DNA of 32,000 nucleotides from Candidatus Saccharimonadota bacterium (GCA_016699265.1 CP064967.1:150001-182000), one strand, 5' to 3'. Positions 6,786 through 24,924 are shown, counted from the first letter of the stretch. The notes: generated by a model not told the origin, from the sequence alone. Numbers and translations: made by a program.

Positions 6786-6787
6786 CT

Positions 6788-7336
6788 ATGTTAAAAATCG
6801 TAACTGTACCAAATAAAATCCTCACATCTTCAACACAGAAAGTGAAGAATATTACACCTAAAATTAGGCGTCTGGTAGAGCAGATGAAGGAAACTTTGAT
6901 CAGCCAGCGTGATCCAGAAGGAGTAGGCCTTGCCGCAACTCAGGTAGGGGAGAGTTTGAGCATTTTCATAATGCGACCAGAATTAAAGGGCGAGATTATT
7001 GTTTGTATAAATCCTGAGGCAACGGTAGTTGAGTCAAAGGATGTTATTCATGAAAGCAAAACACTTCTTGCTAAAAAAAATAAACATGCGAAGATGGAGG
7101 GATGCCTCTCGATACCCAGAATCTGGGCTCCACTGAAAAGAAAGGGTAGAGTACATCTTAACTATGAAGATCTTGATGGAAACAAACACTCAAAAGAGCA
7201 TGAGGGCTTTGAGGCGATTATTGTTCAGCACGAGGTCGACCATCTAAACGGAATTTTATTCACGCAACGATGTCTGGAGCAGAAAGTTACGCTTTATGAG
7301 GAAGAAGGGGATGAGTTGGTGGCCCTAAAGACCTAG
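6788..7336 (+). CDS. def: Peptide deformylase
   Basis: All three signature motifs are present: GVGLAATQVG, EGCLS and QHEVDHLNG. Confidence 0.9.
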   Translation: MLKIVTVPNKILTSSTQKVKNITPKIRRLVEQMKETLISQRDPEGVGLAATQVGESLSIFIMRPELKGEIIVCINPEATVVESKDVIHESKTLLAKKNKHAKMEGCLSIPRIWAPLKRKGRVHLNYEDLDGNKHSKEHEGFEAIIVQHEVDHLNGILFTQRCLEQKVTLYEEEGDELVALKT

Positions 7337-7445
7337 ATTATTTTTTATCTATTATTTCTTATTTTTTATTGAGTTTCTAATTTGAAATTGATTAATTTAG
7401 CGATCAATTAGAAATAGTAAATAAGAAATTAGCAAATAGGGAGAA

Positions 7446-7733
7446 TTAGGCGGTAGCAACTGGAGTAGAGGTTGCCTTCATCTGAGTCTGAGCAAGAACG
7501 TAGAACGGCTTCACTCCATCGGTCATGTCCTTTCGAATTCGCTTAATGCACTTTGTGCAAAGACGCACTGTTTCGGACTTACCTTTGATCATAATGGCAA
7601 TTTTCTGAAGGTTTGGTTTAAAGATTTTTTGTGTTTTTGGAGCTCTTTTCTTCCATCGTCCTCCCGCAACACCACGATGGTGGGTATGTGAGCGTCCGAA
7701 TATAGTCGATTTTCCACAGTGAAAGCATTCCAT
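7446..7733 (-). CDS. rpmB: 50S ribosomal protein L28 (Cys-containing variant with a C-terminal extension)
   Basis: MECFHCGKSTIFGRSHTHH...FKPNLQKIAIMIKGKSETVRLCTKCIK follows the L28 pattern C..(T)GK...G...SH....F.PNLQK. I chose the internal ATG at 7733 over the longer ORF-track start. Confidence 0.75.
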   Translation of the reverse strand: MECFHCGKSTIFGRSHTHHRGVAGGRWKKRAPKTQKIFKPNLQKIAIMIKGKSETVRLCTKCIKRIRKDMTDGVKPFYVLAQTQMKATSTPVATA

Positions 7734-7838
7734 AGAGTCGTGTAACTTGTAGCTTAGAACATGAAGCTCAAGATAGACATATATGATATCATAAAGATGC
7801 GGTTTTGGCAATTTTCAATTGAGGATTCTAGTTGTATT

Positions 7839-7958
7839 GTCATCCCGAATCCCGACAGTTTTGGGATGAGGGATCCAGCGAAGCGAAGTTAGACTTGGCA
7901 AAGCCAAGTTAGACTTGGCGAAGCGCTGCGCTAGATTCTTCGTTTCACTCAGAATGAC
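7839..7958. repeat. MITE-like palindromic repeat, family A, intergenic copy (GTCATCCCGA ... CTCAGAATGAC)
   Basis: The imperfect terminal inverted ends are gtcatcccga / tcagaatgac. There is an internal tandem duplication of aagttagacttggc(a/g)aagc. The right ~45 nt are nearly identical to 9245-9293. Confidence 0.8.
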
Positions 7959-10069: not shown

Positions 10070-11914
10070 ATGCGAAGCACTTTAAATCTTAATTCTGAGA
10101 AAAAATCGACAAATCATCAACTTCGACATGAACAAAAGCAGAACTGGAAGGTAGCGTTATATTTTTTCTTCATTATTGTCCTTGGAACGCTACTCTCAAA
10201 AGGCTCTATTCATGCTGGGTTTCTATTAGACGATCTTATACAAAGGCGCGTTTATCTTACACATAATTTACAGTTAAGTTTATTAAGAGCCTTCTCGTTT
10301 ATAGACGGATCTAATTTGGGATGGCTTATAGAGCGAGGGCAAATACCGTGGTGGTCCCACGTAGATCTTAAAATTTCCTTCTTTAGACCCGTTACTGCTC
10401 TCACTCACTACCTCGACTATGTGTATTGGCCAAAATCCTCAGAGCTAATGCACCTACAGAGCATTTTATGGTTTTTGATTGTATGTTCGTTGGTTTTATT
10501 TTATTATGAAAAAATTTTCAGGTCTTGGAAAACGGCATTGGTAGCCGCATTTCTTTTTACTGCTGATTTTAACCATTACAGTCCAATCGCATGGCTTGCA
10601 GACAGAAATCGATTAATCGCTCTCTTTTTCGGTTTGTTAACGCTTCTAACCCATCGAATGTGGGTGAATAGCTCTAAAAGTTTTTACAGATTTTTGGCAT
10701 TATTTCTATTTTTTACGACATTACTTTCTGCGGAGTCCGGAGTAGCGGTATTGGGCTTTATAGTGTTCTATTCAGTACTGCTAAAAAGGTCAGATATCAA
10801 GAAGCTTTCTCTTATGGTCCTAGATTATATTGTCGTTTTTATTTTTTGGTTGGTCATCTATGCTGCACTGGGTTACGGAGTGGCCAATACGGGACTGTAC
10901 ATAAATCCAGTAGCCGATCCAGTTCGATATTTAGGCTTGATTATCGAGCGAATTCCAATTCTTTTCATAGAGCAGTGGCTCAAACCAAGTATGTTTGTGC
11001 CTAGAAATCTATGGTCATGGCCAGATCCTTCACTTTATAGTCTTATAGAGGCTCCAGATAAATATTTTTACTGGACAGCGTCCATTGCAGCCATATTTGT
11101 GCTGTGGAAGGCGTTACACAGGATACTTAGAAAAGATGAGGTTGCTCAATATTTCATAGTCTCGACTTTTATAGCATTGTTTTTCGCTTCAACAACTAAA
11201 ATTATTGATGGACGTTTGCTTATTTTTGTCGGACTAGGCACGAGTGGCCTTGTGGCGCAGCTATTATTTTTATTTTTAGGAAAAAAGAAAAAACAGTTTA
11301 CCTATTTTTCAATTTGCATACTGATATTATCAGTTGTTTTGCAGGGCATACTGTCTCCAATCAGACTCTACAACTCTATGGTTCAAAAGTATTCATTTTC
11401 GGATGAGCTCGAAATTCTTACCGATTTCGAAAAGAACGCGGAAGGAAGATCGCAGTTTGTGATTAATTCTCCAAGCATGCATTATGTAGCTTATGCTCCT
11501 TTCGTGCGTAACTCAGGCTCATCAACTAGTGCTCAGTATTTAGTGCCGGGCTACAATCCGATACTAGTAAAGCGGGTAGATGAGAATGCACTACAAATTA
11601 CCATACTTGAAAAGCCAGAAGTAAAATCTTATTTCAATAAGCTTGATCCGAAAAAGTTATATGAAGATCTAGAACTAACATTTAACAAGTCGGATTTCCC
11701 CACTGAGGTGAGTAATTTTAGAGTACGAAATTTTTATGTTGAAGTTTTAAAATCTCACAATAAATCGGATAGCAAGATTATTAATTTTAAGTTCGATGAG
11801 AAGTTGTCGAGCAAATCTTATATTTGGTATCGGTGGGACTGGAAAAAAAGGAAATATGAGATCTTTACCATTCCTAAAGTTGGAGAAGAAGTCATCATAT
11901 CCGCTCCTAATTAA
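10070..11914 (+). CDS. Large polytopic membrane protein, possibly a GT-C fold (ArnT/PMT-like) glycosyltransferase
   Basis: More than 10 predicted TM helices, an early acidic loop motif (GFLLDDLIQ) and a soluble C-terminal domain of ~170 aa. The functional assignment is weak. Confidence 0.55.
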   Translation: MRSTLNLNSEKKSTNHQLRHEQKQNWKVALYFFFIIVLGTLLSKGSIHAGFLLDDLIQRRVYLTHNLQLSLLRAFSFIDGSNLGWLIERGQIPWWSHVDLKISFFRPVTALTHYLDYVYWPKSSELMHLQSILWFLIVCSLVLFYYEKIFRSWKTALVAAFLFTADFNHYSPIAWLADRNRLIALFFGLLTLLTHRMWVNSSKSFYRFLALFLFFTTLLSAESGVAVLGFIVFYSVLLKRSDIKKLSLMVLDYIVVFIFWLVIYAALGYGVANTGLYINPVADPVRYLGLIIERIPILFIEQWLKPSMFVPRNLWSWPDPSLYSLIEAPDKYFYWTASIAAIFVLWKALHRILRKDEVAQYFIVSTFIALFFASTTKIIDGRLLIFVGLGTSGLVAQLLFLFLGKKKKQFTYFSICILILSVVLQGILSPIRLYNSMVQKYSFSDELEILTDFEKNAEGRSQFVINSPSMHYVAYAPFVRNSGSSTSAQYLVPGYNPILVKRVDENALQITILEKPEVKSYFNKLDPKKLYEDLELTFNKSDFPTEVSNFRVRNFYVEVLKSHNKSDSKIINFKFDEKLSSKSYIWYRWDWKKRKYEIFTIPKVGEEVIISAPN

Positions 11915-12004: not shown

Positions 12005-12427
12005 ATGAACTATCCGAAAGGATTCGTTTTGGGACGTTTTCAGCCAATTCACAAAGGTCATCAGTATTTAATCGATAGGGCTTTAGAGCAGTGCGACGAG
12101 GTTGTGATAGGGATAGGAAGCGCAAATGTCCAAGATGAGAAAAATCCATTCTCCTTTGAACAACGGCTTCAGCAGATCCAACGTATTCTATCGGAAAAAA
12201 AGTATCGAGGAAGAACCGTCTCTATCGTGGCGGTTGATGATGATCCGGATGACGCCGTGTGGCTTAAGGTACTTATTAAAAAAACAGGGAAGATTGACGT
12301 TGTGTTTGGGAACAATGAATGGCCAAATGGCATTTTTGAGAAGGCTGGTTACAAGGTTATCAGAGTTCCACTTTATAAACGGCACATCTACGAGGGGACT
12401 AAAATTCGTAAGCGGTTGGGAATTTGA
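12005..12427 (+). CDS. NadM-like nicotinamide-nucleotide adenylyltransferase / cytidylyltransferase family protein
   Basis: GRFQPIHKGHQYLI (the GRFQPxHxGH motif) and IGIGSANVQDEKNPFSFEQR. I preferred the ATG at 12005 to the TTG at 11984. Confidence 0.7.
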   Translation: MNYPKGFVLGRFQPIHKGHQYLIDRALEQCDEVVIGIGSANVQDEKNPFSFEQRLQQIQRILSEKKYRGRTVSIVAVDDDPDDAVWLKVLIKKTGKIDVVFGNNEWPNGIFEKAGYKVIRVPLYKRHIYEGTKIRKRLGI

Positions 12428-12436
12428 GAGGTTTTA

Positions 12437-13057
12437 TTATCTTTCTGCGCCGTACTTTTCCATTAATTGCTTGAGGCTTTCTTCGTTCATTGCTCCATTA
12501 GTTGGCTGTGCAACCTTTTGGAGATCCTTCATCATATTTGAGTAATCGGTGAACTTGATCTCTGCAGGAGGAGTAAAGAGGCTGTCAGCGACCGTACCAG
12601 GCTTACAGCTACTCTTATATTTTTCTATCATTGCTAAGGCGTCGGAAGGATTCGTACCTTTTCCAGCTCCGGTTTTTGAGTTTTGAGTAGGAGTGATCTT
12701 GAGATCAGGTACCTGCATCATAAAGCCTTGTTTGGTCGTGTCGTTCCACGAGTACATCTTTTTGTCCTTAAGAATCATACTTCCAGACTCTTCTGCCTTT
12801 GAACCGGTAAAGTCTGTTCGTACTGCTCCAGCCTTCATATACGTCTTAGTCTGTCTTCCGTTATCGTCGGTGAAGGTGCACTCAAGACTCAAGGATCTCG
12901 AAAGTGCATCTTGTATTGAGGTAAATGAAAGTTTTCCCGGTTGAGTTTGAGTTCCTGTCACTAAAGAACCACCATTTGACCCCGACTTATTCATTAAGAA
13001 ATATCCTGCAGCAAGAAGGAGGAGGACCACAACAACGGCTAGTACTTTTTTGTTCAT
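12437..13057 (-). CDS. Secreted or membrane-anchored hypothetical protein
   Basis: N-terminal signal/anchor KKVLAVVVVLLLLAAGYFL. No catalytic motif recognised. Confidence 0.6.
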   Translation of the reverse strand: MNKKVLAVVVVLLLLAAGYFLMNKSGSNGGSLVTGTQTQPGKLSFTSIQDALSRSLSLECTFTDDNGRQTKTYMKAGAVRTDFTGSKAEESGSMILKDKKMYSWNDTTKQGFMMQVPDLKITPTQNSKTGAGKGTNPSDALAMIEKYKSSCKPGTVADSLFTPPAEIKFTDYSNMMKDLQKVAQPTNGAMNEESLKQLMEKYGAER

Positions 13058-17550: not shown

Positions 17551-18930
17551 TTAAGACTTCTTTTTGTAGTTAAATGAGAGAGTTACAAGGGTGGCGAGAA
17601 GAAGCAGAAATCCAAGATACTCAAGATATTGAGGCCAGAATATAGTTATCAGTTGTCGGTTTTCAGTCTTCAGATCCTGACCGCCGATATCTGTCGACTG
17701 ATTGCTCAATACCCAGCCGTTTTCCCAGTTATTCACCAATACATGATCCTTCAAAATTTGAAATTTGAAATTTGAAATTTGAAATTGGAATGCGATCCAA
17801 CCATCGTTAAAAGCAGAGCCGTTATGAAGTACCTTAAGTTCTTTTCGTACTCCCGAAACGTCTATCTGCGAAGCAAAATAATTGTAGTAAAGTGGATAGA
17901 TTGTCACGCTCTCAAGCTCATTTATTGTTTCATAGTCTCCATATGAGATGTTATCAATGTAAATGCCATACCCATGCCCAGACTCATAGGGTGGTATTAC
18001 AAAGTAGTCGTTAGTCATAACTGAGGAATGGGACAACTCATCGTATGTGTCACAAAGACTGGAGTATAGATTCTTTATGCAAAAACGGAGTGGTAGGCCC
18101 TTGATATTTTTTGATCTGAACCCAATCGCATAACCAAGATTGTGGGGGAATGTGTCGTTTTGCAATGCTATCCCGCGTGTAAAATTTTTAGTTCTCAGTT
18201 CAACGACAGATGTATTCCCATCCTTTTTCAGCGAGATAACGTTTGGTACCTGTTGATTTTTAATAATTCGTTCTGATGAGAATTTAATCGCGTGCTTTAA
18301 ATCGGAAATTGAGGCCGTGAGTTCAGGTTTTATTCTGTCGGTTTTGGTGAGAAAGTCGCGAAAAGGGTAATTGAAAAGCCTGGTGAGATGTTTGTTAGTA
18401 GTTATGTATTCTGGATGGTCAAGATATGCTTGGTCAATAAAATTCCAGCGATAGCTCGGCGAGATCTGAGTATTTATCTTAAGAATCTGAGGTTTTTTTG
18501 GCAAAACTACTTTATAAATCAGGATTGTACCAAACTGCCTAATTTTTTTAAGTTTTCCAGCCTGTGTGAGTTTCTTTATCGTATCTATAGTCTCGCGTTG
18601 GTACAAAATTTGATTTCTGTTTTTTTCAGTAGGCGTTATGACCGACGTATCCCAAACCAAATAACCAATGTCGTACTTTTCAAGAGAAGCGTAAAATTGA
18701 TTATAGTGTTGGCTATAGAGCGTGTACTGAAGCTCTCTAAACGATTGTTCATTGGCAATGCTCCAACGATCCGAGTCTCTATCAAGCACGGGTTGTTTCA
18801 TGCCAAACCAGATAAATCCAGAACCCTGATAGCCCTGCTTGCCGGTAGGCGTAGTCCAGTTGTAATACTGCCAACCTGAAAATGTATGGAGTGGAAGGGT
18901 GAGCACGGGCTGCATAGGTTGGGATTCCAT
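17551..18930 (-). CDS. Extracytoplasmic domain plus terminal TM; probably the C-terminal part of a split GT-C-like membrane protein
   Basis: There is no N-terminal signal. The C-terminal TM is YLGFLLLLATLVTL. The frame is open upstream to 18963. See the finding on frameshifts with 19074..20438. Confidence 0.55.
   Translation of the reverse strand: MESQPMQPVLTLPLHTFSGWQYYNWTTPTGKQGYQGSGFIWFGMKQPVLDRDSDRWSIANEQSFRELQYTLYSQHYNQFYASLEKYDIGYLVWDTSVITPTEKNRNQILYQRETIDTIKKLTQAGKLKKIRQFGTILIYKVVLPKKPQILKINTQISPSYRWNFIDQAYLDHPEYITTNKHLTRLFNYPFRDFLTKTDRIKPELTASISDLKHAIKFSSERIIKNQQVPNVISLKKDGNTSVVELRTKNFTRGIALQNDTFPHNLGYAIGFRSKNIKGLPLRFCIKNLYSSLCDTYDELSHSSVMTNDYFVIPPYESGHGYGIYIDNISYGDYETINELESVTIYPLYYNYFASQIDVSGVRKELKVLHNGSAFNDGWIAFQFQISNFKFQILKDHVLVNNWENGWVLSNQSTDIGGQDLKTENRQLITIFWPQYLEYLGFLLLLATLVTLSFNYKKKS
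17642..17675. repeat. Family E repeat, copy in a membrane-protein CDS
   Basis: The reverse complement, atctgaagactgaaaaccgacaactgataactat, matches 25473-25506 at about 30 of 34 positions. It encodes LKTENRQLIT. Confidence 0.75.
17754..17788. repeat. Tandem heptamer (AAATTTG)x4 plus one imperfect unit inside a CDS
   Basis: Read directly. On the minus strand it encodes QFQISNFKFQIL. The same motif family fills intergenic DNA at 6058-6100 and 3988-4075. Confidence 0.9.
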
Positions 18931-19073
18931 ATATTTCCAAAGTTCAAAGTAGTTGATGAGGAATTACAACCTTAAATTTATCGGAGATTAAATTACCTCG
19001 TAGTAAAGGAAATCCGTATATAAGAACGGCACAAATCAAAAGAAATATGGCGGGATAAGTTTGTTTCCTATTT

Positions 19074-20438
19074 TTAAACTTTGAGATGATCCATAGAAGA
19101 GCGTACGAAATAAATATAAGCGTATCCGAAAATTAATAGAATCGATAGTTTTGTAAAGACAAAACGGAGCGCCTCTTCAAAAACCGAAAATTTGAGAAGA
19201 ATATTAAAGAGCCAGCTGAATGGAGGAGTACTGTTCATAAGTAGCGTGAAAGGCAGTATGTAAAAGGGCAGTAGAGACTTCAAAACTCGGTTCTTTTCTT
19301 TTATCGCTAGGTAAATACCGAAAAGAGATAGAGCAAAAAATCCATATCCAACACTGGCAACGACGGGATTATTGAGATGATCTCGCCACTCAGGCATAAG
19401 GTACTCAAAACGATTTTTCTCAAAATTGAACACAGACCACTGAAAGTAGAAACCGCGTACAAGGGCGACATCCTGAATATAGCCATTTTCTTGATTGCGA
19501 ACTCGGTACTCCTGTGAGAAGATGCGATTCTGCTTACTTTCCTTGGGGACGGATGATGAGGTTGCTATGTAATAGATATTGGGGAGAAGCCATAAACTAT
19601 TTATAAGGAGTGTTAAAAGTAGAAGGGTTACTGCTTTTTTTGTCATCCCGAACTGTTTTTTGTCATCCTGATTGTTAGTGAAGGATCCAACGACCGAAGG
19701 TAGCGCATTGCCAGATTTTACTCCCGACGTTGCGTTGTGATAAGAATTACGATTTAAAACGGTATAAATAATTAGGAAGAGAAGGTAAACGCCAAAAAAT
19801 GCATACCAAAGATGGGCGGCATACGCCTGAGGCATGGCAAGTAGCGTTACTAATCCAAATAACCACAGATTTTTTTTGTTTGAACTGTGTTCTAGGTACT
19901 TTAGACTAAAAAGTACAATCCACGGTAGAGCCGCATACTGCGAAGTGAACATCTCAAACGGAGCGTAAAATTGCTGAACAGTACCGGGATTAAAGAGATA
20001 AAACAGAGAACCTATGAAGGCGACTGTGCTTGTAGCATAGAGCTTAGAACTTAGAACTTCCTCATGTTCTATGTTTCGAGTTCTACGTTCTAATATCTGC
20101 TTTAGAAGAAAGTACATTCCCAAAGGTCCAAAAAGTAAACAAAGAAAAACATAAAAATAGCGAAGAGAGCTAAGTGGAAGTGCAAAATGAAGCAACCAAA
20201 GTATGACTACTCGTGGTAGATCCGCCATGTGCGAGTGTCCAGCGACTGCCCCAAGACCTTGTTCCTCACGCCATACACCATTAAACATACGTTCGAAGTT
20301 GAGACTAAAGTTGAGCTCGGGATGAAGCGTATCCCATCCGGTTAAGAAGGTATTTGGCTTATAGGTGAGATAGGCTACGGCAGAAACAATGATAATGATA
20401 AGGATTGAGTAGATGTTTCTTTTTAAAAACCGTAGCAT
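19074..20438 (-). CDS. Polytopic membrane protein; probably the N-terminal part of a split GT-C-like (AftD/DUF3367-like) glycosyltransferase
   Basis: More than 10 TM helices. The early loop TGWDTLHPELNFSLNFERMFNGVWREEQGLG resembles the first periplasmic loop of arabinofuranosyltransferase-like GT-C proteins. Repeat-derived segments lie at 19642-19690 and 20041-20098. Confidence 0.55.
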   Translation of the reverse strand: MLRFLKRNIYSILIIIIVSAVAYLTYKPNTFLTGWDTLHPELNFSLNFERMFNGVWREEQGLGAVAGHSHMADLPRVVILWLLHFALPLSSLRYFYVFLCLLFGPLGMYFLLKQILERRTRNIEHEEVLSSKLYATSTVAFIGSLFYLFNPGTVQQFYAPFEMFTSQYAALPWIVLFSLKYLEHSSNKKNLWLFGLVTLLAMPQAYAAHLWYAFFGVYLLFLIIYTVLNRNSYHNATSGVKSGNALPSVVGSFTNNQDDKKQFGMTKKAVTLLLLTLLINSLWLLPNIYYIATSSSVPKESKQNRIFSQEYRVRNQENGYIQDVALVRGFYFQWSVFNFEKNRFEYLMPEWRDHLNNPVVASVGYGFFALSLFGIYLAIKEKNRVLKSLLPFYILPFTLLMNSTPPFSWLFNILLKFSVFEEALRFVFTKLSILLIFGYAYIYFVRSSMDHLKV

Positions 20439-20445
20439 CCGTTAA

Positions 20446-20697
20446 TTATCTCAGAATTCCTTTATCCTTAAGACACTGTTTATATACATCTGCAACTGGG
20501 TAGCTCACTTTTGTACCGGTCTTTTGATCTGTTTGCTCATATCGTGAAATCAAGGCACATTGATAAATCGCCTGATTTTTGAGATATGTGTCTATTCTTT
20601 TCAACGAGAAAAAAAGAGCAAAAGACAAAAAAATTACCAAAAGAAAAGAGCTCGCAGTGCGAGATACTATTTCAGGATTATTTTGTGTATTGTCCAT
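20446..20697 (-). CDS. Small membrane-anchored hypothetical protein
   Basis: N-terminal TM SFLLVIFLSFALFFSL and two Cys in the C-terminal part. It lies 7 nt upstream of the 20438 start, so it is likely co-transcribed. Confidence 0.5.
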   Translation of the reverse strand: MDNTQNNPEIVSRTASSFLLVIFLSFALFFSLKRIDTYLKNQAIYQCALISRYEQTDQKTGTKVSYPVADVYKQCLKDKGILR

Positions 20698-20736: not shown

Positions 20737-20793
20737 AAACATAGAACTTGAATCGTAGAACTTTTAAAGTGGAAAGTTCTACGCTCTATGTTT
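20737..20793. repeat. Nested palindromic repeat (family F) at the left edge of the GC-rich island
   Basis: The outer arms are AAACATAGA / TCTATGTTT. The inner arms are an 11-bp pair, CGTAGAACTTT / AAAGTTCTACG. It is related to 20041-20098 inside the neighbouring CDS. Confidence 0.8.
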
Positions 20794-20815
20794 CAAGATT
20801 GTAGTCAAGGGTAAG

Positions 20816-20903
20816 GCGACGATTGTTGTTTGTGATGTTTTTTGCTGCAGCTGGGGGGCTGGAGTTCCGACGGGGGTCGAGAACAAAACACAACAATCGT
20901 CGC
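20816..20903. repeat. 13-14 bp inverted repeat enclosing a ~60-nt GC-rich loop
   Basis: GCGACGATTGTTG(T) at 20816-20829 pairs with (A)CAACAATCGTCGC at 20890-20903. GGGTAAGG occurs on both sides (20809-20816 and 20909-20916). Confidence 0.75.
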
Positions 20904-21016
20904 GGTATGGGTAAGGAACTATTCCTCAAGTCTTCCTGGTTGGAAGTTCGTTTCGATTTGCATCGAGACAGGCTCTAGGCTTCGGGACCTAGGTTGAGGT
21001 AGCCTCTTTTGTGGTG

Positions 21017-22036
21017 TCACTTGGTGACTGTGGTCTCCAAAACGGAGATCAACGCATCGCCTGCATAGACGAGAACGCGAACGTTCACGCTATTACACCC
21101 TTGTGGTGTACCGCAGTTTGCACCGCTGTTGCCGGGATCACCGCTGTTCAGGACTTCGTCCGGATGAGCCATCGTGGGCATGTTCAGCATGTTCGCCGAA
21201 CCGTGGGAAACCAGTCCCCAGACACCCCATTCGAGTGCATCTCCGTTGAAGTACCGGCCTCGCAACGTGAATCCGTTGTCGAAGGAGTTGTCGCGGAACG
21301 TGTAGGACTGATCCATCACGTTGATGACGAGCAACAAGCAACCCTGATCCGAACCGACCATGCCGCACTCGAAACCTTCGAAGTTGTAGGGACCGCTGTA
21401 GTAGCGATACTCCCAAGCTCCGACGATGAAGTCGCAGGGATCGGTGTAGCAATACGGGCTGTCATACGTGCCGTACTCCATTCCGTCAGGAACCTGTGTG
21501 CCGTCGACGACGCGGAATTCCGGTACATCCGTGTTGGGGACGTTCGGGAATGTCTTCCACATCTCGGGGGCTGGGTCCTGCAGGCGGTCCATCCAGGCCA
21601 TCACGATCGGGTTTTCGGCGAGCCGTTCGGTTGCGTTGATTGTCCACGCTCCGTGGGTCTCCGTTGAGGAGAAGCTTGGTGTGGGCTTCATTGCGACCGT
21701 GTTGGCCGTTGCCGTTGTGACCGTCGTTGCCGTTGCCGTTGTGACCGTCGTGGCGGGTGTCATGGTGGTCGTTGCGGGCGTGACCGTCGTGTCGGGCGTA
21801 GCCGTCGTCGGGTCCGTGGGCGTTCCAGCGGTCGTGCAAAGGACGTTGGCGTCCTGCAGATTGCCGGGGTGCTTCACGTTCCACTGCTCGACCTGCGTCA
21901 CGCAGACGGGGTCCAGGTTGGACACTGCCGAGGTTCCGTTGTTCACGGTGATCGCGTTGAACGCGAGCATACCGAAAACGAGTGTAATCACCACACTGAG
22001 TGCGGTGTAGAAACCCTTTCTATTGGTGGGACGCAT
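21017..22036 (-). CDS. Island protein 1: secreted or membrane-anchored protein with a Thr/Pro linker and a Cys-containing C-terminal domain of unknown function
   Basis: GGAGG-5nt-ATG at 22036. TM/signal FYTALSVVITLVFGMLAF. The linker is TPTDPTTATPDTTVTPATTT.... The ~200 aa C-terminal domain has no motif I recognise. Confidence 0.7.
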   Translation of the reverse strand: MRPTNRKGFYTALSVVITLVFGMLAFNAITVNNGTSAVSNLDPVCVTQVEQWNVKHPGNLQDANVLCTTAGTPTDPTTATPDTTVTPATTTMTPATTVTTATATTVTTATANTVAMKPTPSFSSTETHGAWTINATERLAENPIVMAWMDRLQDPAPEMWKTFPNVPNTDVPEFRVVDGTQVPDGMEYGTYDSPYCYTDPCDFIVGAWEYRYYSGPYNFEGFECGMVGSDQGCLLLVINVMDQSYTFRDNSFDNGFTLRGRYFNGDALEWGVWGLVSHGSANMLNMPTMAHPDEVLNSGDPGNSGANCGTPQGCNSVNVRVLVYAGDALISVLETTVTK

Positions 22037-22245
22037 CACTACCTCCTTCGAGGGTTGTTCATGGTTTGAGCCGTGATGTGCTCTTAAGCCGACTAAGGGG
22101 AGTTCCCTTCCATGAGCCGATCACCATACGACAGTGACGTTGTTCGAGGTTGAGTCGAGCATGACGCTGTCACATTTACGGATTTTACTCCGAAGGACCC
22201 GATCTGTTTGATCGTTGGCGATATCCTATCGTCTTCACCTTGAGC

Positions 22246-22689
22246 TCAGCCGCAGGTAGCCACGAAATCCAGCCACTTGGCCGGGTCGGGGATGACGCTG
22301 TTGAGCTCTTCCACGTCGGCGACGCAGGTGTCGTAGTTCGTCTGGATGACGATCTCTCTGATCTGGTCGCGGTTGAAACCGGTGTCGTCCTTCTTCACGA
22401 AGACGATTGCGCCGAGGATCATGGTGAAGATCAGGCTGATCAGGGTCAGTCCGAGGGACTTCTGGACGTTCTTGGAGAGTTCATAGAGGCTCTCTTCGGT
22501 CGCTGCCAGGGGCATCCATGTGGCGTGATCCGCCGGGTTCAGGGTCTCGAGGTGGGCGACGATGCACTCCTTCAGAGCCTTCTTGGATCCATTGCTGGAC
22601 AGTAAGAGACCTTGTGCGCACCGACGCAAGACCTTCTTGTTGGTCTGCTCCTTGACCCATTGGATCAGTTCTTCGTTGGTGGGATTCAT
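22246..22689 (-). CDS. Island protein 2: single-pass membrane protein of unknown function
   Basis: AAGGA-6nt-ATG. The central TM is LGLTLISLIFTMILGAIVFV. It is preceded by conserved upstream module copy A. Confidence 0.65.
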   Translation of the reverse strand: MNPTNEELIQWVKEQTNKKVLRRCAQGLLLSSNGSKKALKECIVAHLETLNPADHATWMPLAATEESLYELSKNVQKSLGLTLISLIFTMILGAIVFVKKDDTGFNRDQIREIVIQTNYDTCVADVEELNSVIPDPAKWLDFVATCG

Positions 22690-22695
22690 AACACG

Positions 22696-22828
22696 TCCTT
22701 TCGACGATTAGTACTTGTCATCTCGACACGGTATCAGCGGGGTTGCTGAACCGATTTTACGGGATTGTCCGAAGACTTACCGTAGGACTGCAAGCTCGAC
22801 CGAAGTCGGCTGCGATGATCGTGCCCTG
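22696..22828 (-). promoter_or_regulatory. Conserved upstream module, copy A (putative promoter / structured leader)
   Basis: About 130 nt align with 23407-23534. It contains two hairpins and the RBS block CGTCGAAAGGA next to the start codon. See findings. Confidence 0.55.
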
Positions 22829-22842
22829 ATGGGGCCGTTGTA

Positions 22843-23400
22843 CTACAGCGTCGGAGGCAGCGTTAGCTGCGGCGGCGGCGATGTGGTCGTTGTCGGCGGC
22901 GATGTGGTCGTTGTCGGCGGCGATGTGGTCGTTGTCGGCGGCGGCTGTGTCGTCGTTGTCGGCGGCGGCTGTGTCGTCGTTGTCGGCGGCGATGTGGTCG
23001 TTGTCGTTGACGTTGTTGTCGTCGTTGACGTTGTCGTGGTGGTGGCCGGAACACACGAGTTCACGTTGAACTCTTGTTCTGACACATTCCCTGCGTGACC
23101 GTTCGTGTTCCAACTTGCTGACAAAACAACTGATCCTCCTTTCGAGAAGTCGAATGGGATCGTACCGTTGGTGTGAGTACCGTTCCAGACGAGCTGCTTG
23201 TAGGTGGTGACCTCCTTGTACACGATCTTGATCGTGATGGAGTTGCTGTTCGCGTCGGCGAAACCTTCGGTCTCATAGCTCACGCCTACGCAATCTGCGG
23301 ACAGGACGCTTGTGTGCGCACTGGCAATCCGGTTGGTGGTGAATACCATCAACATGTTAAATACAACGAGCCATACTAAGACTCTCTTTTTGCGTGTCAT
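22843..23400 (-). CDS. Island protein 3: secreted protein with a C-terminal (T4-5 S/Q P2-3)n repeat tail
   Basis: The ATG at 23400 is preceded by AAGGA-6nt, chosen by analogy with copy A. Signal peptide KKRVLVWLVVFNMLMVFTTNRIASA. The tail is TTTTSPPTTTTQPPP... Confidence 0.7.
   Translation of the reverse strand: MTRKKRVLVWLVVFNMLMVFTTNRIASAHTSVLSADCVGVSYETEGFADANSNSITIKIVYKEVTTYKQLVWNGTHTNGTIPFDFSKGGSVVLSASWNTNGHAGNVSEQEFNVNSCVPATTTTTSTTTTTSTTTTTSPPTTTTQPPPTTTTQPPPTTTTSPPTTTTSPPTTTTSPPPQLTLPPTL
22869..23045. repeat. Tandem 21/24-nt coding repeats (Thr/Pro tail of island protein 3)
   Basis: ggcggcgatgtggtcgttgtc x3, then ggcggcggctgtgtcgtcgttgtc x2, then further degenerate units. All other frames and strands give low-complexity shadow ORFs. 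Confidence 0.9.
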
Positions 23401-23406
23401 GGAAGT

Positions 23407-23534
23407 TCCTTTCGACGTTGTCATCTCGACACGGTGTCAGCGGGATTGCTGAACCGATTATACGGGCTTAAGACCAGAGGTCTATACCGTAGGACTGCAA
23501 TCTCGGCTGAGCCGGATGCGATGATCGTGCCCTG
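23407..23534 (-). promoter_or_regulatory. Conserved upstream module, copy B
   Basis: It aligns with 22696-22828. The differences fall in loops or bulges, or form compensatory pairs. Confidence 0.55.
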
Positions 23535-23547
23535 TTTGAAGAAAACC

Positions 23548-23622
23548 TCAGTGTCTGAAAAAATTCTTCAGAACTTGATGGAGCCTCCTTCGTCTCGATC
23601 GGTTGTAGTATCTACATCCCAT
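23548..23622 (-). CDS. Candidate 24-aa Arg-rich micro-ORF (MGCRYYNRSRRRRLHQVLKNFFRH)
   Basis: It has the best SD in the window, AAAGGAGGTGATT-ATG. It ends 13 nt before upstream module copy B, which mirrors the 14-nt gap between the stop of island protein 3 and copy A. It is very short and not verifiable from sequence alone. Confidence 0.25.
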   Translation of the reverse strand: MGCRYYNRSRRRRLHQVLKNFFRH

Positions 23623-24107
23623 AATCACCTCCTTTCGGTTGTGAGTGGATTTCGATTCTTGACCGAAGCGACCTTGTGACGGTTAGTTCCACGCGGAGCT
23701 CTATCTCTATGTGAATGACAAAGAACAAAGTTCAAATATCAAACAAAATCCAAAGTTCAAAAACTGAACAATTGATGAGAGAGCTACTACGACGTATGAC
23801 TAAAATAAAAATTCCGAATAAAAAAAAGAAAATAAACAAAACCAAAAATACAATTGAATGTGGGGCAGTACCTATGAAATAAAAATTAAAAACTAAAAAT
23901 TAAAAATTACATTCATAAACACCGTTCCACACTCAATGATCTTGATTGTGTTCGTTCCTTATACCCAAATTGTTAAAGAGCGTGATAATCGCTTATCCAT
24001 GCTTACGGATAAGTCACATCACTCTTACAAACACCTATGAACGTAAGGTTGCAGCAAGCTATCGCTGCTCTTACGAGCGTAAGTGCCTAGATTTTTAGTC
24101 CAGGGTT

Positions 24108-24134
24108 GAAAAGGTATGGGGCTCATACCTTTTC
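24108..24134. terminator. Hairpin terminator downstream of 24247..24924
   Basis: GAAAAGGTATG-gggct-CATACCTTTTC is an 11-bp stem with A/T tracts forming the stem ends, so it is usable on either strand. Confidence 0.5.
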
Positions 24135-24246
24135 ATCTCTAAACTGAAATGAAAAAAAGTATGAAGAATTTCTGAAGAAGGTTGATGTGTGGAGTTTGGG
24201 TAGTTTCGCCTTCGTTGCCCACACGATGGCCTTTCAGAAAAGCTTC

Positions 24247-24924
24247 TTACTTTACCCGTCTTTTAAGATACGCGCCCGATCCAAGACCAAGCATCTGTAA
24301 TGCTAGTAATCCAAGTCCATACTCAGGTCCAGCATTAGGCTGAGATTTTACTCCGAGTACTTTTTTCTCAATACAAAACTGAGCAGCATCATCGTCACTT
24401 ACCATTGAATTTGAAGCTACAGCCTTGTTATAGACACAGAAAACACCCTTATCTGTTGGGAGTTTTTCCTGAGACACAACCTTCGTGTTTAATGTATATA
24501 TATATTCCTCACCCGCATTTAAGGCAAGGTTGTCCGATAGAGTAATGGTTCGAGTTGCTAAATCGTAGTTCTTCACATCTACAGCCTCGAGACTTGTAGG
24601 AAGTGTGTCTTTTACCACGATGTTGCTCAATTTATGATCGGAAGTATTCTTAACCTTGATTTTGAACGATACGGTTTGGCCAGCAAAGAAGCGCTGATCT
24701 GTAGATCCAAGATTATCGACAAAGGTTGTAGAGGTCGTTCCACCCTTGGTAGTTACCTGATTCATACCCACGGTCTTATCAACCAAGATAGAGTTAGATT
24801 GACCACCCTGTCCGTAAGGTCCGTACGCTCCGTACTGACCGTACTGGGCTAAAGCTCCTTGACCTAATGAAAGGAACAAGAAACCTGACAAAAGAAATGT
24901 TACTACTCGCGTCCCCTTAATCAT
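24247..24924 (-). CDS. Secreted DUF11-like (conserved repeat domain) surface protein with a C-terminal sorting-signal-like tail
   Basis: Signal peptide VVTFLLSGFLFLSLGQGALA, then a QYGQYGAYGPYGQGGQ low-complexity stretch. VDKTV...FFAGQTVSFKIKVKNTSDHKLSNIVVKDTLP matches the DUF11/TIGR01451 pattern. The tail is QPNAGPEY + GLGLLALQMLGLGSGA + YLKRRVK. Confidence 0.7.
   Translation of the reverse strand: MIKGTRVVTFLLSGFLFLSLGQGALAQYGQYGAYGPYGQGGQSNSILVDKTVGMNQVTTKGGTTSTTFVDNLGSTDQRFFAGQTVSFKIKVKNTSDHKLSNIVVKDTLPTSLEAVDVKNYDLATRTITLSDNLALNAGEEYIYTLNTKVVSQEKLPTDKGVFCVYNKAVASNSMVSDDDAAQFCIEKKVLGVKSQPNAGPEYGLGLLALQMLGLGSGAYLKRRVK

Follow-up and report, generated by a model that had tools for sequence, protein, structure and literature searches.

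A GC-rich block in a low-GC genome as a probable long-standing, recombination-swapped surface-protein cassette of Microgenomates

The GC-rich block at positions 20792-23712 of the window (the whole 32-kb stretch of DNA analysed here) is probably a long-standing slot of Microgenomates, namely a self-contained expression cassette for surface proteins whose cargo is swapped by recombination. Such a slot would have a fixed, conserved place in Microgenomates (Woesebacteria, Levybacteria and their relatives), next to one gene for the large membrane protein p961 and another for a surface protein of the sortase type. Its cargo would encode surface proteins that carry Thr/Pro linkers and are either secreted or anchored in the membrane, and its signals would comprise an upstream element (farUp) with a tiny Arg-rich ORF, leaders of about 130 nt that pair with the Shine-Dalgarno sequence (SD), strong SDs, a 209-nt spacer and a 3' hairpin element, the leader being present once per gene with a helix 3 that could sequester the SD. 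Replacement of the cargo by recombination would explain why the composition changes so sharply at the boundaries and why the block looks 'foreign'. In every lineage the cargo family is GC-rich, and its composition is mostly stationary; the high GC content is therefore not a fading remnant of recent import from a high-GC donor. The block and its surroundings contain the following features:

17551..20438, minus strand: p961, large multi-pass membrane protein of about 960 aa; normal GC; universal downstream neighbour of ORF1
20446..20697, minus strand: p83, small membrane protein; normal GC (0.35); flank, not island
20805..21016, minus strand: conserved 3' untranslated element downstream of ORF1; its distal end is the left GC boundary
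21017..22036, minus strand: ORF1, 339 aa; SD-led (GGAGG-5-ATG); GC 0.59, GC3 0.75
22037..22245, minus strand: 209-nt ORF2-ORF1 spacer, the 5' leader of ORF1; ultra-conserved; ends in GAAGGAGG
22246..22689, minus strand: ORF2, 147 aa, one central TM helix; SD-led (AAGGA-6-ATG); GC3 0.82
22690..22842, minus strand: predicted structured 5' leader, copy 2, upstream of ORF2; direct repeat of 23401-23545
22843..23400, minus strand: ORF3, 185 aa; SD-led ATG at 23400 (AAGGA-6-ATG)
23401..23545, minus strand: predicted structured 5' leader, copy 1, upstream of ORF3; covariation support
23546..23712, minus strand: upstream element farUp; conserved; its distal end is the right GC boundary
24247..24924, minus strand: DUF11/CLIPPER-repeat surface protein (Pfam PF01345 at 1.4e-08, TIGR01451); normal GC

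The abrupt change in composition that a sequence-only reading had described from hand counts was borne out by computation. The island has a GC content of 0.555 versus 0.409 in the remaining window, with steps at about 20.80 and 23.70 kb in a 100-nt profile; equal-length windows outside the island average 0.409 (sd 0.016, maximum 0.451), which places it at z = 9.2, and the four 60-nt lines counted by hand (36/60, 33/60, 20/60 and 24/60 GC) all reproduce. The GC3 of the three minus-strand ORFs is 0.75 (ORF1), 0.82 (ORF2) and 0.68 (ORF3), and that of the flanking genes 0.30-0.47, leaving aside a doubtful overlapping ORF at 12126-12545 (0.51). Noncoding DNA is likewise affected, with an intergenic GC of 0.49-0.54 within the island versus 0.35 outside. 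At four-fold third positions, the island has A.20 C.36 G.34 T.10 and the host genes have A.32 C.20 G.16 T.32. The described codon shift was recovered: ACG/ACC/CCG/CCC prevail in the island, whereas the PT linker of the host (2644-2709) mainly uses ACA/CCA. All three island ORFs carry an SD at the starts first proposed (22036, 22689 and 23400), whereas none was found upstream of the 24 flanking genes when the region from -20 to -4 was scanned. The absence of mobility genes was also confirmed, as none of the three ORFs has a match in Pfam, NCBIfam, PHROGs or PADLOC, and neither an integrase nor a tRNA gene nor a significant direct repeat was found for the island. The 8-bp direct repeat CTCTATGT, proposed as a boundary mark, does exist at 20784 and 23705, but its significance was not upheld: a chance 8-mer is shared by 17.6% of random 120-nt window pairs, the left copy sits within an AT-rich hairpin just outside the island beside p83, and the repeat is absent from the block boundaries in relatives.

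The most widespread component of the block is ORF1. A membrane anchor or signal helix at its N-terminus is followed by a small N-domain, a linker rich in Thr and Pro and, at the C-terminus, a globular domain of about 220 aa. The latter contains six invariant Cys residues, among invariant W/C/G/N columns in the alignment, and was modelled by AF2 with pLDDT >90 across much of its length. Neither a Foldseek search with this model against PDB and BFVD nor sequence searches of Pfam, NCBIfam, PHROG, PADLOC and PDB returned a match; the six-Cys domain is novel. Ninety-two homologs were identified, each named one belonging to CPR/Microgenomates, and a profile search of 1.84 billion representatives yielded only 158 relatives; no homolog named from outside CPR was present among 5.8 billion clustered proteins, and no phage or plasmid match was obtained in IMG/VR, INPHARED or PLSDB. 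The p961 gene lies directly downstream of ORF1, with or without p83 in between, in all 25 distinct Microgenomates loci tabulated (a p83 homolog intervenes in 13), and the distant homolog L096 is placed upstream of p961 and GC-enriched as well. Enrichment of ORF1 over its flanks was observed at 22 of 22 species loci (GC 0.48-0.63 versus 0.35-0.48) and at 33 of 33 metagenome loci (0.49-0.62 versus 0.34-0.46), with a GC3 of 0.44-0.84 among the orthologs. GC-rich flanks occurred at none of 56 loci (22 species genomes, 33 metagenome contigs and the one distant homolog).

The neighbourhood of the slot is conserved as well. In the window, p961 is split by two 1-nt insertions into ORFs 19074-20438 and 17551-18930; the named members of its family, which numbers at least 529, all come from Microgenomates, and two members carry PF10131. 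On the upstream side, the CLIPPER gene, whose product ends in a C-terminal hydrophobic, basic tail, is by synteny the conserved flank in the 'type A' loci of Woesebacteria and Levybacteria, and is replaced at this position by a sortase and a small protein in 'type B' loci. A GT4 gene downstream, a PMT-family gene beside ORF1/p961 in L089 and the PF10131 matches on the two p961 relatives provide a lead towards glycosylation. ORF1 may be a surface protein of high abundance that is probably O-glycosylated, and its variation may serve attachment to, or evasion of, a host.

The other two ORFs are far more restricted, neither being distributed lineage-wide as ORF1 is. ORF2 has only nine homologs, which share 50-59% identity and support the minus-strand frame. 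Some public gene calls pick a 147-aa shadow ORF opposite the strand of ORF2. ORF3 consists of a Sec-type signal peptide (ASA|H), a domain of about 100 aa and a tail of Thr/Pro tandem repeats (about 22850-23050); it was found only in same-species contigs, in which the repeat length varies by strain and alignments break at about 22914-22984.

Several observations show that the block has a history separate from that of its flanks and has been exchanged horizontally, as had been suspected from its composition. Across lineages, the identities of ORF1 and of the adjacent p454 are strongly incongruent (84% versus 40% between L013 and L019, 66% versus 92% between L019 and L020), although ORF1 is congruent with its flanks in some clades, e.g. 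L032-34. In Levybacteria, the segment in which identity collapses matches the GC-rich block. Within the species, contigs L090-L092, whose flanks share 99% amino acid identity with the window, carry an ORF2 allele that is only 59% identical; three allele combinations occur among such contigs (ORF2a-ORF1a, ORF2a-ORF1b and ORF2b-ORF1b), and in the N-terminal half of ORF1, 23 codons differ synonymously and 22 nonsynonymously, only two of them outside residues 17-156. In the close relative L097 (TrwB 94% identical in amino acids), the slot is filled by a different GC-rich lipoprotein-like gene, with the leader (E 4e-54) on one side and the 3' element (E 2e-24) on the other, as in the window. As judged from these alleles, the cargo between conserved noncoding elements is replaced by homologous recombination, both within the species and between lineages, and the block behaves as a hot spot of allele replacement.

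The noncoding elements are better conserved than the proteins they surround. Two hairpins are present in the 3' element, a small one (20975-20992, CTAGG...CCTAG) and a long one with perfect 14-bp arms (20816-20829 and 20890-20903). The element shares 78-82% identity with its counterparts in L024, L028 and L059, in which the ORF1 proteins are only 50-58% identical, and its long stem displays compensatory changes, e.g. GCGACGATTG...CAATCGTCGC versus GCGACTAGTG...CACTAGTCGC. The spacer, constant in length at about 205-210 nt, has a mean column identity of 95% over eight contigs (about six distinct lineages), while the ORF2 and ORF1 proteins flanking it there are mostly only 50-59% identical to those of the window. 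Its variation clusters in the loop of an AAGGG/CCCTT hairpin; neither fold energy (z = -0.59) nor covariation indicated a structure in the spacer, and it had no match in Rfam. The two leader copies are 82% identical to each other, and copy 2 is conserved in L024, L028, L059, L089, L093, L095 and L090. The leader is predicted to be a structured RNA: compensatory changes occur in nine of the 30 pairs of its consensus structure versus 3.2 +/- 1.0 in shuffles (0/500), and the covariation score is 0.248 versus at most 0.06 for slid controls. In helix 3, GUCCU pairs with the SD AGGAC; this helix is invariant and thus itself without covariation support. The leader appears to sequester the SD, suggesting regulation beyond mere stabilisation. 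Copy 1 also contains a promoter-like site, TAGACC-16-TATAAT (23484 to 23457), matching 10 of 12 consensus positions. Further upstream, farUp is 82-93% identical in L024, L028 and L059 and includes a small SD-led ORF (23548-23622, MGCRYYNRSRRRRLHQVLKNFFRH, SD AAAGGAGGTGA), which starts with (M)GCRYYNR, continues into an Arg-rich tail and is kept in three of four lineages despite nucleotide divergence. With nhmmer profiles, the 3' element was additionally found in L089 and L097, and farUp in L089, L093, L095 and L097. The conserved noncoding elements were detectable in the window's own clade only; there, a slot with conserved arms is shown, and elsewhere it is only suggested.

Why the GC content of the block stays high is a separate question. 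We tentatively favour that the GC-rich composition is kept by selection tied to expression of the cassette transcript. Host-like mutation bias would predict a ratio of W->S to S->W substitutions of about 1:2.25, but the two classes are about equal in four of five clades; in two clades with a GC3 of 0.66-0.75, the polarised substitutions in the ORF1 domain were 43 W->S and 36 S->W, and 54 and 44, respectively. Ordinary codon adaptation does not favour GC, as two highly expressed genes of the Levybacteria genome L011, rpsA and rho, have a GC3 of no more than 0.25 and 0.30, respectively; the rise in the island covers G-ending as well as C-ending codons. The window's own clade, H3, has 70 S->W and 40 W->S changes, which fits a partial decay from a richer source, and 91 S->W and 57 W->S changes were counted in the wider L032-34 alignment. 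These two excesses would also be expected if new copies kept entering the slot from a GC-rich reservoir that has escaped sampling (a sublineage of Microgenomates with high GC, or one of their mobile elements) and then decayed towards host GC. Such a reservoir, which we consider possible but rather unlikely, would agree with the pervasive phylogenetic incongruence, the wide GC3 spread among orthologs and an SD use foreign to host genes. However, no GC-rich flanks were found at any of the loci, the searches of IMG/VR, INPHARED and PLSDB were without match, GC3 is uncorrelated with cross-lineage similarity (rho 0.07), and the balance of substitutions in most clades argues against steady decay. 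GC-biased gene conversion (gBGC), by which biased repair of heteroduplex mismatches at a recombination hot spot would raise GC regardless of function, seems to us quite improbable. Recombination at the locus is demonstrably intense, the W->S shift at four-fold sites is symmetric (T->C and A->G), intergenic DNA is affected too and GC is roughly stationary, all of which would suit this process. On the other hand, when whole alleles of 59% identity replace one another, little heteroduplex would form within the cargo, p83 and p961 have kept a normal GC although they border the exchange, and another hypervariable patch (11321-11620, 74 mismatches per 300 nt versus L015) lies in a region of about 0.35-0.37 GC (500-nt bins). 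The shift of 15-25 points in GC, with a GC3 of up to 0.84, also exceeds any bacterial report known to us. Higher GC3 has been reported for recombining bacterial genes (PMC4450053), and gBGC in bacteria is described as lacking a mechanistic demonstration (PMC8153448).

It had also been proposed that the 2.9-kb island was recently acquired from a high-GC organism outside the lineage, possibly the host of an episymbiont; an actinobacterium or archaeon would be an example of such a donor. Its sharp boundaries, its composition, codon usage and SD use so unlike those of the flanks, and the S->W excess in the window's own clade, consistent with amelioration, would all be in line with such an import. 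We nevertheless regard it as very improbable, as ORF1 is GC-rich in the same context in all sampled Microgenomates and at no locus with GC-rich flanks, its named homologs all fall into CPR, the profile search returned no more than 158 matches, integration marks (integrase, tRNA gene, significant direct repeat) are missing, and the GC-rich noncoding elements are themselves conserved within Woesebacteria. The notion that the same three genes would recur throughout the lineage if the segment were an old resident holds for ORF1, but not for ORF2 and ORF3. A chimeric joining of a fragment from a high-GC organism into a low-GC contig, to which the abrupt GC step and the internal repeats (duplicated leader, TP tandem repeats) that do break some short-read assemblies might point (Logan contigs L006-L009 stop at the leader), is hardly conceivable, given that the same architecture exists in other species and that an identical ORF1 with both junctions was assembled independently in ENA, JGI and Logan data, on 22 contigs in all, with flanks of about 99% identity. 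Both junctions recur at this identity in contigs that stem from no fewer than 10 samples and were built with several pipelines (contig names in the MEGAHIT style, k127/k141; JGI; Logan). The high-GC block is real and correctly assembled.

The block resembles several known systems and also differs from each of them. Like classical genomic islands, it has sharp compositional edges, deviant codon usage and translation signals and a phylogeny discordant with its flanks; unlike them, it is devoid of integrase, transposase, tRNA target and significant direct repeats, and all relatives examined have a filled, GC-rich slot, with no composition-matched donor found. With SD-sequestering leaders such as riboswitches and RNA thermometers it shares a conserved 5' leader of about 130 nt with several covarying helices, in one of which a conserved GUCCU pairs with the SD AGGAC, but it has no Rfam family match, and its SD-pairing helix, being invariant, lacks covariation support.

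Variable surface loci that are recombined between conserved flanks include those for capsule and O-antigen, Neisseria pilE/pilS and Mycoplasma vsp/vlp, the latter with conserved 5' regions. Common to these and the cassette are conserved flanks around highly divergent same-species alleles, secreted or surface-exposed products with repeat linkers, a genome-atypical composition and a 5' noncoding region that is conserved and recurs ahead of every variable gene. However, such loci are usually AT-rich, whereas the cassette is GC-rich within an AT-rich genome; its conserved arms are noncoding RNA-like elements rather than core genes, neither a silent cassette archive nor a site-specific recombinase is present in the 32-kb window, and its anomaly is conserved across order- or class-level lineages. 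In expression units for S-layer or other major surface (glyco)proteins, the promoter is strong and the mRNA is stabilised by a long, structured 5' UTR; glycosylation genes lie next to the unit, and the gene is replaced at the level of strains. The cassette similarly has a promoter-like site, a putative structured leader, a 3' hairpin, strong SDs, allele replacement, GT4, PMT and large membrane-protein neighbours, and Thr/Pro linkers typical of O-glycosylated regions; yet its leader appears to sequester the SD, suggesting regulation and not stabilisation alone, and ORF1, with only 339 aa, an N-terminal anchor and a Cys-rich head of 220 aa, has no SLH or known S-layer domain. Finally, a Pro-Thr-Asp repeat surface protein of a Gracilibacterium (CPR) is described as displaying nucleotide hypervariation within the repeat while the amino acids are conserved (PMC6851277). 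The passages of that report on this protein make no mention of a GC-rich island, a cross-lineage slot or conserved RNA elements, but the protein shares with the cassette its occurrence in a CPR organism, an N-terminally anchored extracellular product with PT-type repeats and a local hypervariation that breaks assemblies.

With a GC content of 0.555, compared to 0.409 in the rest of the window, the block at 20792-23712 lies 9.2 standard deviations above same-size windows elsewhere, and the GC3 values of its genes (0.75, 0.82 and 0.68 for ORF1, ORF2 and ORF3, respectively) are far from the 0.30-0.47 of the flanking genes, the one exception being a doubtful overlapping ORF at 12126-12545 (0.51). 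The abrupt compositional change described in the sequence-only reading of this DNA is thus borne out, and its four hand-counted GC values were matched exactly on recount. In a 100-nt profile, the GC content steps at ~20.80 and ~23.70 kb; bins of 500 nt range from 0.51 to 0.62 at 21.0-23.5 kb and from 0.32 to 0.51 elsewhere, with about 0.40 beside the block. The block comprises the following features:

23712-23546, minus strand: conserved upstream element (a), 82-93% identical in the related loci L024, L028 and L059
23545-23401, minus strand: leader of ~130 nt (b), copy 1, repeated as copy 2 at 22842-22690
23400-22843, minus strand: ORF3 (c), with a putative Sec-type signal peptide ending ASA|H, a small domain and a tail of Thr/Pro repeats
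22689-22246, minus strand: ORF2 (d), with one putative central transmembrane helix
22245-22037, minus strand: spacer of 209 nt (e), with a mean column identity of 95%
22036-21017, minus strand: ORF1 (f), with a putative anchor helix, a Thr/Pro linker and a domain of ~220 aa with six invariant cysteines
21016-20805, minus strand: 3' element (g) with two hairpins, the long one of which keeps its pairing via compensatory changes

Both GC boundaries coincide with the outer ends of the upstream element (a) and the 3' element (g), and the island is thus a single cassette of the size of a transcription unit. Intergenic DNA shares the deviation (GC 0.49-0.54 within the block and 0.35 outside). At four-fold third positions the block has A.20, C.36, G.34 and T.10, compared to A.32, C.20, G.16 and T.32 in host genes, and the share of the codons AAG and ATC rises from 41% to 87% and from 30% to 91%, respectively. 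Similarly, codon counts confirmed that the Thr/Pro linkers of the island are written in ACG, ACC, CCG and CCC, whereas the host PT linker at 2644-2709 uses ACA and CCA, as had been proposed from the sequence. A properly spaced Shine-Dalgarno (SD) sequence, also claimed previously, precedes all three island genes, while a search of positions -20 to -4 revealed a recognizable SD in none of 24 flanking genes. Translation initiation in this organism seems to proceed mostly without an SD, so that the four SD-led starts of the island (the three ORFs and a small ORF within the upstream element) stand out. The 8-bp direct repeat CTCTATGT, which the sequence-only reading had placed at the two boundaries, does not mark them in any meaningful way: when 120-nt windows are paired at random, 17.6% of the pairs have an 8-mer in common, the left copy falls within an AT-rich hairpin adjoining the gene of the small membrane protein p83 (20446..20697), and the repeat was not found at the island boundaries of relatives. 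A target-site duplication was rejected on the same grounds, the 8-mer being within chance expectation and not conserved. It should be noted that the island is separated from the upstream gene encoding a DUF11/CLIPPER-repeat surface protein (24247..24924, minus strand) by 534 nt of AT-rich (0.35 GC), gene-free DNA at 23713-24246, in which poly-A/T tracts are accompanied by direct repeats of 25 nt (23718-23767) and an inverted repeat of 26 nt (24093-24149), and which could represent a promoter region, a terminator or a remnant.

The block is not an assembly artefact. In independent ENA, JGI and Logan assemblies, 22 contigs encode a protein identical to ORF1, with the same neighbours in the 10 places shown, and these contigs are colinear with the window at ~99.3% identity over both junctions; one further such contig (L040) was obtained from a metagenome scan. 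As both junctions recur at ~99% identity in at least 10 samples and in the contigs of several pipelines, the mis-assembly considered in the sequence-only reading can be dismissed. Some short-read contigs stop where the leader is duplicated or are broken within the Thr/Pro tandem repeat, which is the usual effect of repeats and no sign of a chimera. Public gene calls within the GC-rich block often choose long shadow ORFs on the wrong strand (in contigs L001-L005, L016 and L017), the equivalents of which lie on the plus strand of the window at 22163-22606 and 23173-23379; the 147-aa shadow ORF opposite ORF2 has the same length as the true gene. Thus, spurious proteins from this locus have entered protein databases. 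The minus-strand frame of ORF2 was confirmed by nine homologs, and an inversion of ORF2 in some contigs was rejected, since the alignments are colinear and the cause is the wrong-strand gene call.

Among 5.8 billion clustered proteins, 92 homologs of ORF1 were found, and every named one belongs to Woesebacteria, Levybacteria or the 'Patescibacteria group'; a profile search of 1.84 billion representatives yielded only 158 relatives, and none were found among IMG/VR viral contigs, INPHARED phages or PLSDB plasmids. The homolog P0002, which is 91% identical to ORF1 and annotated 'Candidatus Woesebacteria bacterium', resides on contigs sharing 98-99.6% of the flanks of the window. A scan of one genome per GTDB species identified 22 loci, the informative titles of which are Woesebacteria, Levybacteria/Levyibacteriota or Patescibacteria. 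Nine GTDB representative MAGs (L018, L020, L024-L026, L028, L034, L038 and L039) are titled 'uncultured Gammaproteobacteria bacterium'; as the gene order around the locus matches that of Woesebacteria and Levybacteria records, these titles seem to be erroneous placeholders.

In all 25 distinct loci tabulated, the ORF1 homolog is located directly upstream of a large multi-pass membrane protein of the p961 type (17551..20438 in the window), with p83 between the two in 13. The upstream neighbour occurs in two forms, either the DUF11/CLIPPER surface protein, as in the window, or a sortase with a small protein. Since ORF1 is found in the same context across the lineage, the block has long resided in a conserved neighbourhood of surface-protein genes. 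A same-gene, same-context distribution had been named in the sequence-only reading itself as refuting the recent import from a high-GC source that it suggested; for ORF1 this import is thus refuted, and the locus is not a host-to-symbiont transfer. Every related locus with flanking genes carries a GC-rich occupant in the slot between CLIPPER/sortase and p83/p961, and no empty site was seen among them, most loci having been retrieved via ORF1 itself and only two via p961 (L097, with a different GC-rich gene, and L098, which is cut off).

The elevated GC content is likewise a property of the whole family. In 22 of 22 species loci the ORF1 homolog is richer in GC than its surroundings, with values of 0.59 against 0.37 in a Levybacterium, 0.62 against 0.40 in L025 (z 12.5) and 0.63 against 0.48 in L028 (GC3 0.84), and even the most distant ORF1 subfamily reaches 0.48-0.53 in surroundings of 0.35-0.46. 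The same was observed in 33 of 33 metagenome loci with usable flanks (gene 0.49-0.62, flanks 0.34-0.46) and in a very distant homolog with the same synteny (0.50 against 0.36-0.42). As none of these 56 loci (22 species, 33 metagenome and the one distant homolog) has GC-rich flanks, no 'native' high-GC home is visible, and a donor lineage of matching composition was not found, the named homologs all being CPR.

The block has a recombinational history separate from that of its flanks. Based on pairwise identity matrices, the ORF1 domain and p454, a part of the split p961, are incongruent: L013 and L019 share 84% in the former and 40% in the latter, whereas the Levybacteria L019 and L020 share 66% and 92%, respectively. 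The closest relatives of the window are L024 and L028 by p454 (66%), but L018 by ORF1 (71%, with 48% in p454). L019 and L020 share 86-100% of nucleotides in their flanks, and the collapse of identity (70% or unalignable) coincides with the GC-rich block. Within the species of the window, the flanks of which diverge by 0-2%, the N-terminal half of ORF1 differs by 8-21% of nucleotides in L015, L017 and L090-92, and ORF2 of L090-92 differs by 14-34% of nucleotides, with 59% amino acid identity between flanks that are 99% identical in amino acids. The 209-nt spacer occurs in two variants in this species, and three combinations of alleles were observed, ORF2a-ORF1a, ORF2a-ORF1b and ORF2b-ORF1b. Between ORF1a and ORF1b, 23 codons differ synonymously and 22 nonsynonymously; only two of these differences lie outside residues 17-156, and seven of the synonymous ones fall in an unchanged transmembrane helix, a pattern that marks an imported segment rather than point-wise diversification. 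Such divergent alleles between conserved flanks in one species, together with the incongruence with a neighbouring gene, are characteristic of a variable surface-protein locus. In L097, a close relative (94%, 84% and 75% amino acid identity in TrwB, GT4 and CLIPPER), the slot harbours a different gene encoding a 225-aa lipoprotein-like product with a lipobox-like LTAC (GC 0.55, GC3 0.59), which matches the ORF1 profile with an hhalign probability of only 11.6% and is bracketed by the same 5' element and leader (nhmmer E 4e-54) and the same 3' element (E 2e-24). In a search for silent donor cassettes, the profiles of leader, spacer and 3' element matched only the island itself within the 32-kb window. 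A second hypervariable patch is present at 11321-11620, where 74 mismatches per 300 nt separate the window from L015, with 0-2 in neighbouring bins. It resides within an ORF at 10070-11914 (614 aa, no Pfam match), and the surrounding 500-nt bins have a GC content of 0.35-0.37. Thus, as this patch is hypervariable but not GC-rich, local allele replacement alone does not raise the GC content here.

The compositional shift itself is general. In 30 lineages, four-fold sites have A.16, C.35, G.23 and T.26 in ORF1, compared to A.25, C.20, G.17 and T.38 in p454; the shift from A/T to G/C (W-to-S) at these sites is symmetric, involving both T-to-C and A-to-G, and extends to intergenic DNA. Avoidance of U in the mRNA was rejected because of this symmetry across the 30 lineages, and ordinary translational codon adaptation is unsupported, as rpsA and rho of the Levybacterium L011 have a GC3 of 0.25-0.30, compared to 0.69 in ORF1. 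Polarized substitutions in the ORF1 domain, which are small in number and were polarized by parsimony, are balanced in four clades (H1, 43 W-to-S and 36 S-to-W; H2, 54 and 44; GC3 0.66-0.75), while a host-like mutation bias predicts a ratio of about 1:2.25. Accordingly, the high GC content is maintained, and not decaying, in most clades. The window's own clade is S-to-W-biased, with 40 W-to-S and 70 S-to-W substitutions, and a broader alignment of L032-34 gave 57 and 91.

In experiments with E. coli, GC-rich alleles are known to raise fitness. Selection linked to the expression or stability of this transcript might keep the GC content high, an explanation which we rank first and consider quite possible, if short of probable; selection on GC has been argued for previously (PMC2936529). 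Replenishment from an unsampled GC-rich pool would be in line with the pervasive incongruence, but a GC-rich context was found nowhere, and GC3 shows no correlation with transfer (rho 0.07), so that this explanation ranks second and seems rather unlikely. The lack of such a correlation likewise led us to reject the notion that the alleles most widely shared across hosts are recent high-GC imports. GC-biased gene conversion, a hypothesis set out in PMC4450053, ranks last and is improbable, since the hypervariable patch at 11.3-11.6 kb is not GC-rich and the replacement of whole alleles leaves little heteroduplex.

Detection of the noncoding elements of the cassette is limited to the Woesebacteria clade to which the window belongs. 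The upstream element contains a small ORF of 24 aa (23548-23622, minus strand; MGCRYYNRSRRRRLHQVLKNFFRH) behind the very strong SD AAAGGAGGTGA. It starts with MGCRYYNR, followed by an Arg-rich tail, and is kept in three of four lineages: the first eight codons and the Arg-rich tail are retained in L028 and L059 despite nucleotide divergence, and the ORF is disrupted in L024. Its product could be a leader peptide with a regulatory role or a genuine basic protein of small size. For the leader, a consensus fold of nine sequences comprises 30 pairs, nine of which display compensatory changes, compared to 3.2 +/- 1.0 in shuffles (0/500), and the covariation score of 0.248 compares with no more than 0.06 for slid partners. 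In an invariant helix, GUCCU is paired with the SD AGGAC, so that the leader can mask the ribosome-binding site. Copy 1 also includes a promoter-like site (10/12 match), and in L024 the leader directly precedes ORF1, without ORF2. The 209-nt spacer is conserved at 95% over eight contigs from about six lineages, the flanking proteins of which are mostly 50-59% identical to those of the window, and is hence far more conserved than any neighbouring coding DNA. It contains no obvious ORF, and a structured RNA is unsupported, as its fold energy is unremarkable (z -0.59) and compensatory pairs are lacking; the spacer is too conserved for covariation. Compensatory pairing as expected of a structured cis-regulatory RNA was therefore found in the leader and not in the spacer. 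No curated Rfam covariance model, and thus no known cis-regulatory family, matched the window at the gathering threshold, and no credible match at E <= 1 was obtained within 20.7-23.8 kb.

The products of the island look exported, as judged from their hydrophobic N-termini, Cys-rich domains and Thr/Pro linkers. An AF2 model of ORF1 has an N-terminal hydrophobic helix at residues 7-27 and a C-terminal domain with pLDDT above 90 in most 10-residue blocks; a Foldseek search of the model against PDB and BFVD returned nothing below E 0.5, and the alignment profile of ORF1 (A1) matched no PDB sequence at E <= 1. ORF3 was seen in the window's species only. None of the three proteins matched Pfam, NCBIfam, PHROGs or PADLOC, except for a sub-threshold hit of ORF2 to SAP_new25 (E 0.018), in agreement with the earlier statement that no integrase, transposase or phage gene is present. 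The neighbours of the block are a DUF11/isopeptide-type surface protein or a sortase, a GT4 glycosyltransferase and the large multi-pass membrane protein. The latter, p961, has no match in Pfam, NCBIfam or PDB, and only two of its relatives carry PF10131. It is a single ORF of 961 aa in L001 and L015 and is divided into two ORFs (454 and 459 aa) in the window by two separate 1-nt insertions at 18880-19080 (gcTtatat and ctcatCaac); either the gene has really become a pseudogene in this strain, or the assembly contains indel errors. In the contig L089, a PMT/PMT_2 gene (protein O-mannosyltransferase family; 6239-7852) separates the ORF1 homolog from the gene of the large membrane protein, and its predicted function supports putative O-glycosylation of the Thr/Pro linkers. 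Elsewhere in the window, a 613-aa protein (1438-3279) has a Thr/Pro linker in the host codons ACA and CCA, a normal GC3 of 0.31 and a weak C-terminal match to dockerin type I (E 2e-4, under the Pfam cut-off), and is another candidate surface or attachment protein.

The most economical reading of these data is that the locus encodes a surface-displayed, probably O-glycosylated set of proteins, the exposed parts of which would be varied by recombination, and whose transcript would be specially equipped for expression by a regulated leader, a 3' hairpin and SDs of a kind that the genome otherwise lacks. Beyond this, it might be tentatively speculated, with doubt prevailing, that Microgenomates keep an expression slot bounded by RNA elements (the new SD-sequestering leader, the ultra-conserved 209-nt spacer and the 3' hairpin), into which surface genes are swapped within and between lineages and whose cargo is actively maintained at high GC over deep time. 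If so, the locus would be a natural case of long-term selection on GC (or of biased conversion) acting in a defined bacterial transcript against AT bias, and a likely host-attachment determinant in uncultured episymbionts. CPR/Patescibacteria are mostly uncultured, and their host-contact molecules are largely unknown. The locus, being lineage-wide, strongly signalled and hypervariable and encoding predicted exported proteins, is a concrete candidate for a determinant of host interaction or immune evasion, and may also serve as a marker for strain tracking. A family which lies 10-25 GC points above the genome in every lineage and is roughly stationary is unusual; such a composition can mislead compositional detectors of horizontal gene transfer, binning and gene callers, and offers a bacterial test case in which biased gene conversion and selection on GC might be told apart. 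New regulatory RNAs may be represented by leader, spacer and 3' element, in a phylum-level group for which, to our knowledge, almost no riboregulation has been described. The locus is lineage-wide and mechanistically suggestive.

Several known classes of loci were compared. An integron cassette was rejected, as no integrase is present among the scanned ORFs of the window and the 3' hairpin, inspected by eye, has no GTTRRRY core. Similarly, ORF1 is not a type IV pilin, its N-terminus (RKG|FYTAL) having L instead of E at position +5 and no Pfam or NCBIfam N_methyl match, nor is it the target of a diversity-generating retroelement (DGR), since no RT occurs among the scanned ORFs and the duplicated leader and the TP tandem repeats account for all repeats within 20.3-24.4 kb. 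With a classical genomic island the locus shares the composition and codon usage atypical of the genome; no empty site was found among the related loci examined, no integrase or transposase family was matched, the sole tRNA is located at 28.3 kb, and there is no significant flanking repeat, which sets the locus apart from this class by its defining tests. No published description of the locus was found in the literature searched. The nearest CPR precedent in the literature searched is the hypervariable PTD-repeat surface protein of a Gracilibacterium, a different phenomenon (PMC6851277). The locus behaves like both recombination-replaced surface-antigen loci and S-layer-type expression units. 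In contrast to those systems, however, the composition here deviates upward in GC within an AT-rich, reduced genome, this deviation persists across deep lineages, and the arms of exchange are conserved RNA-like elements.
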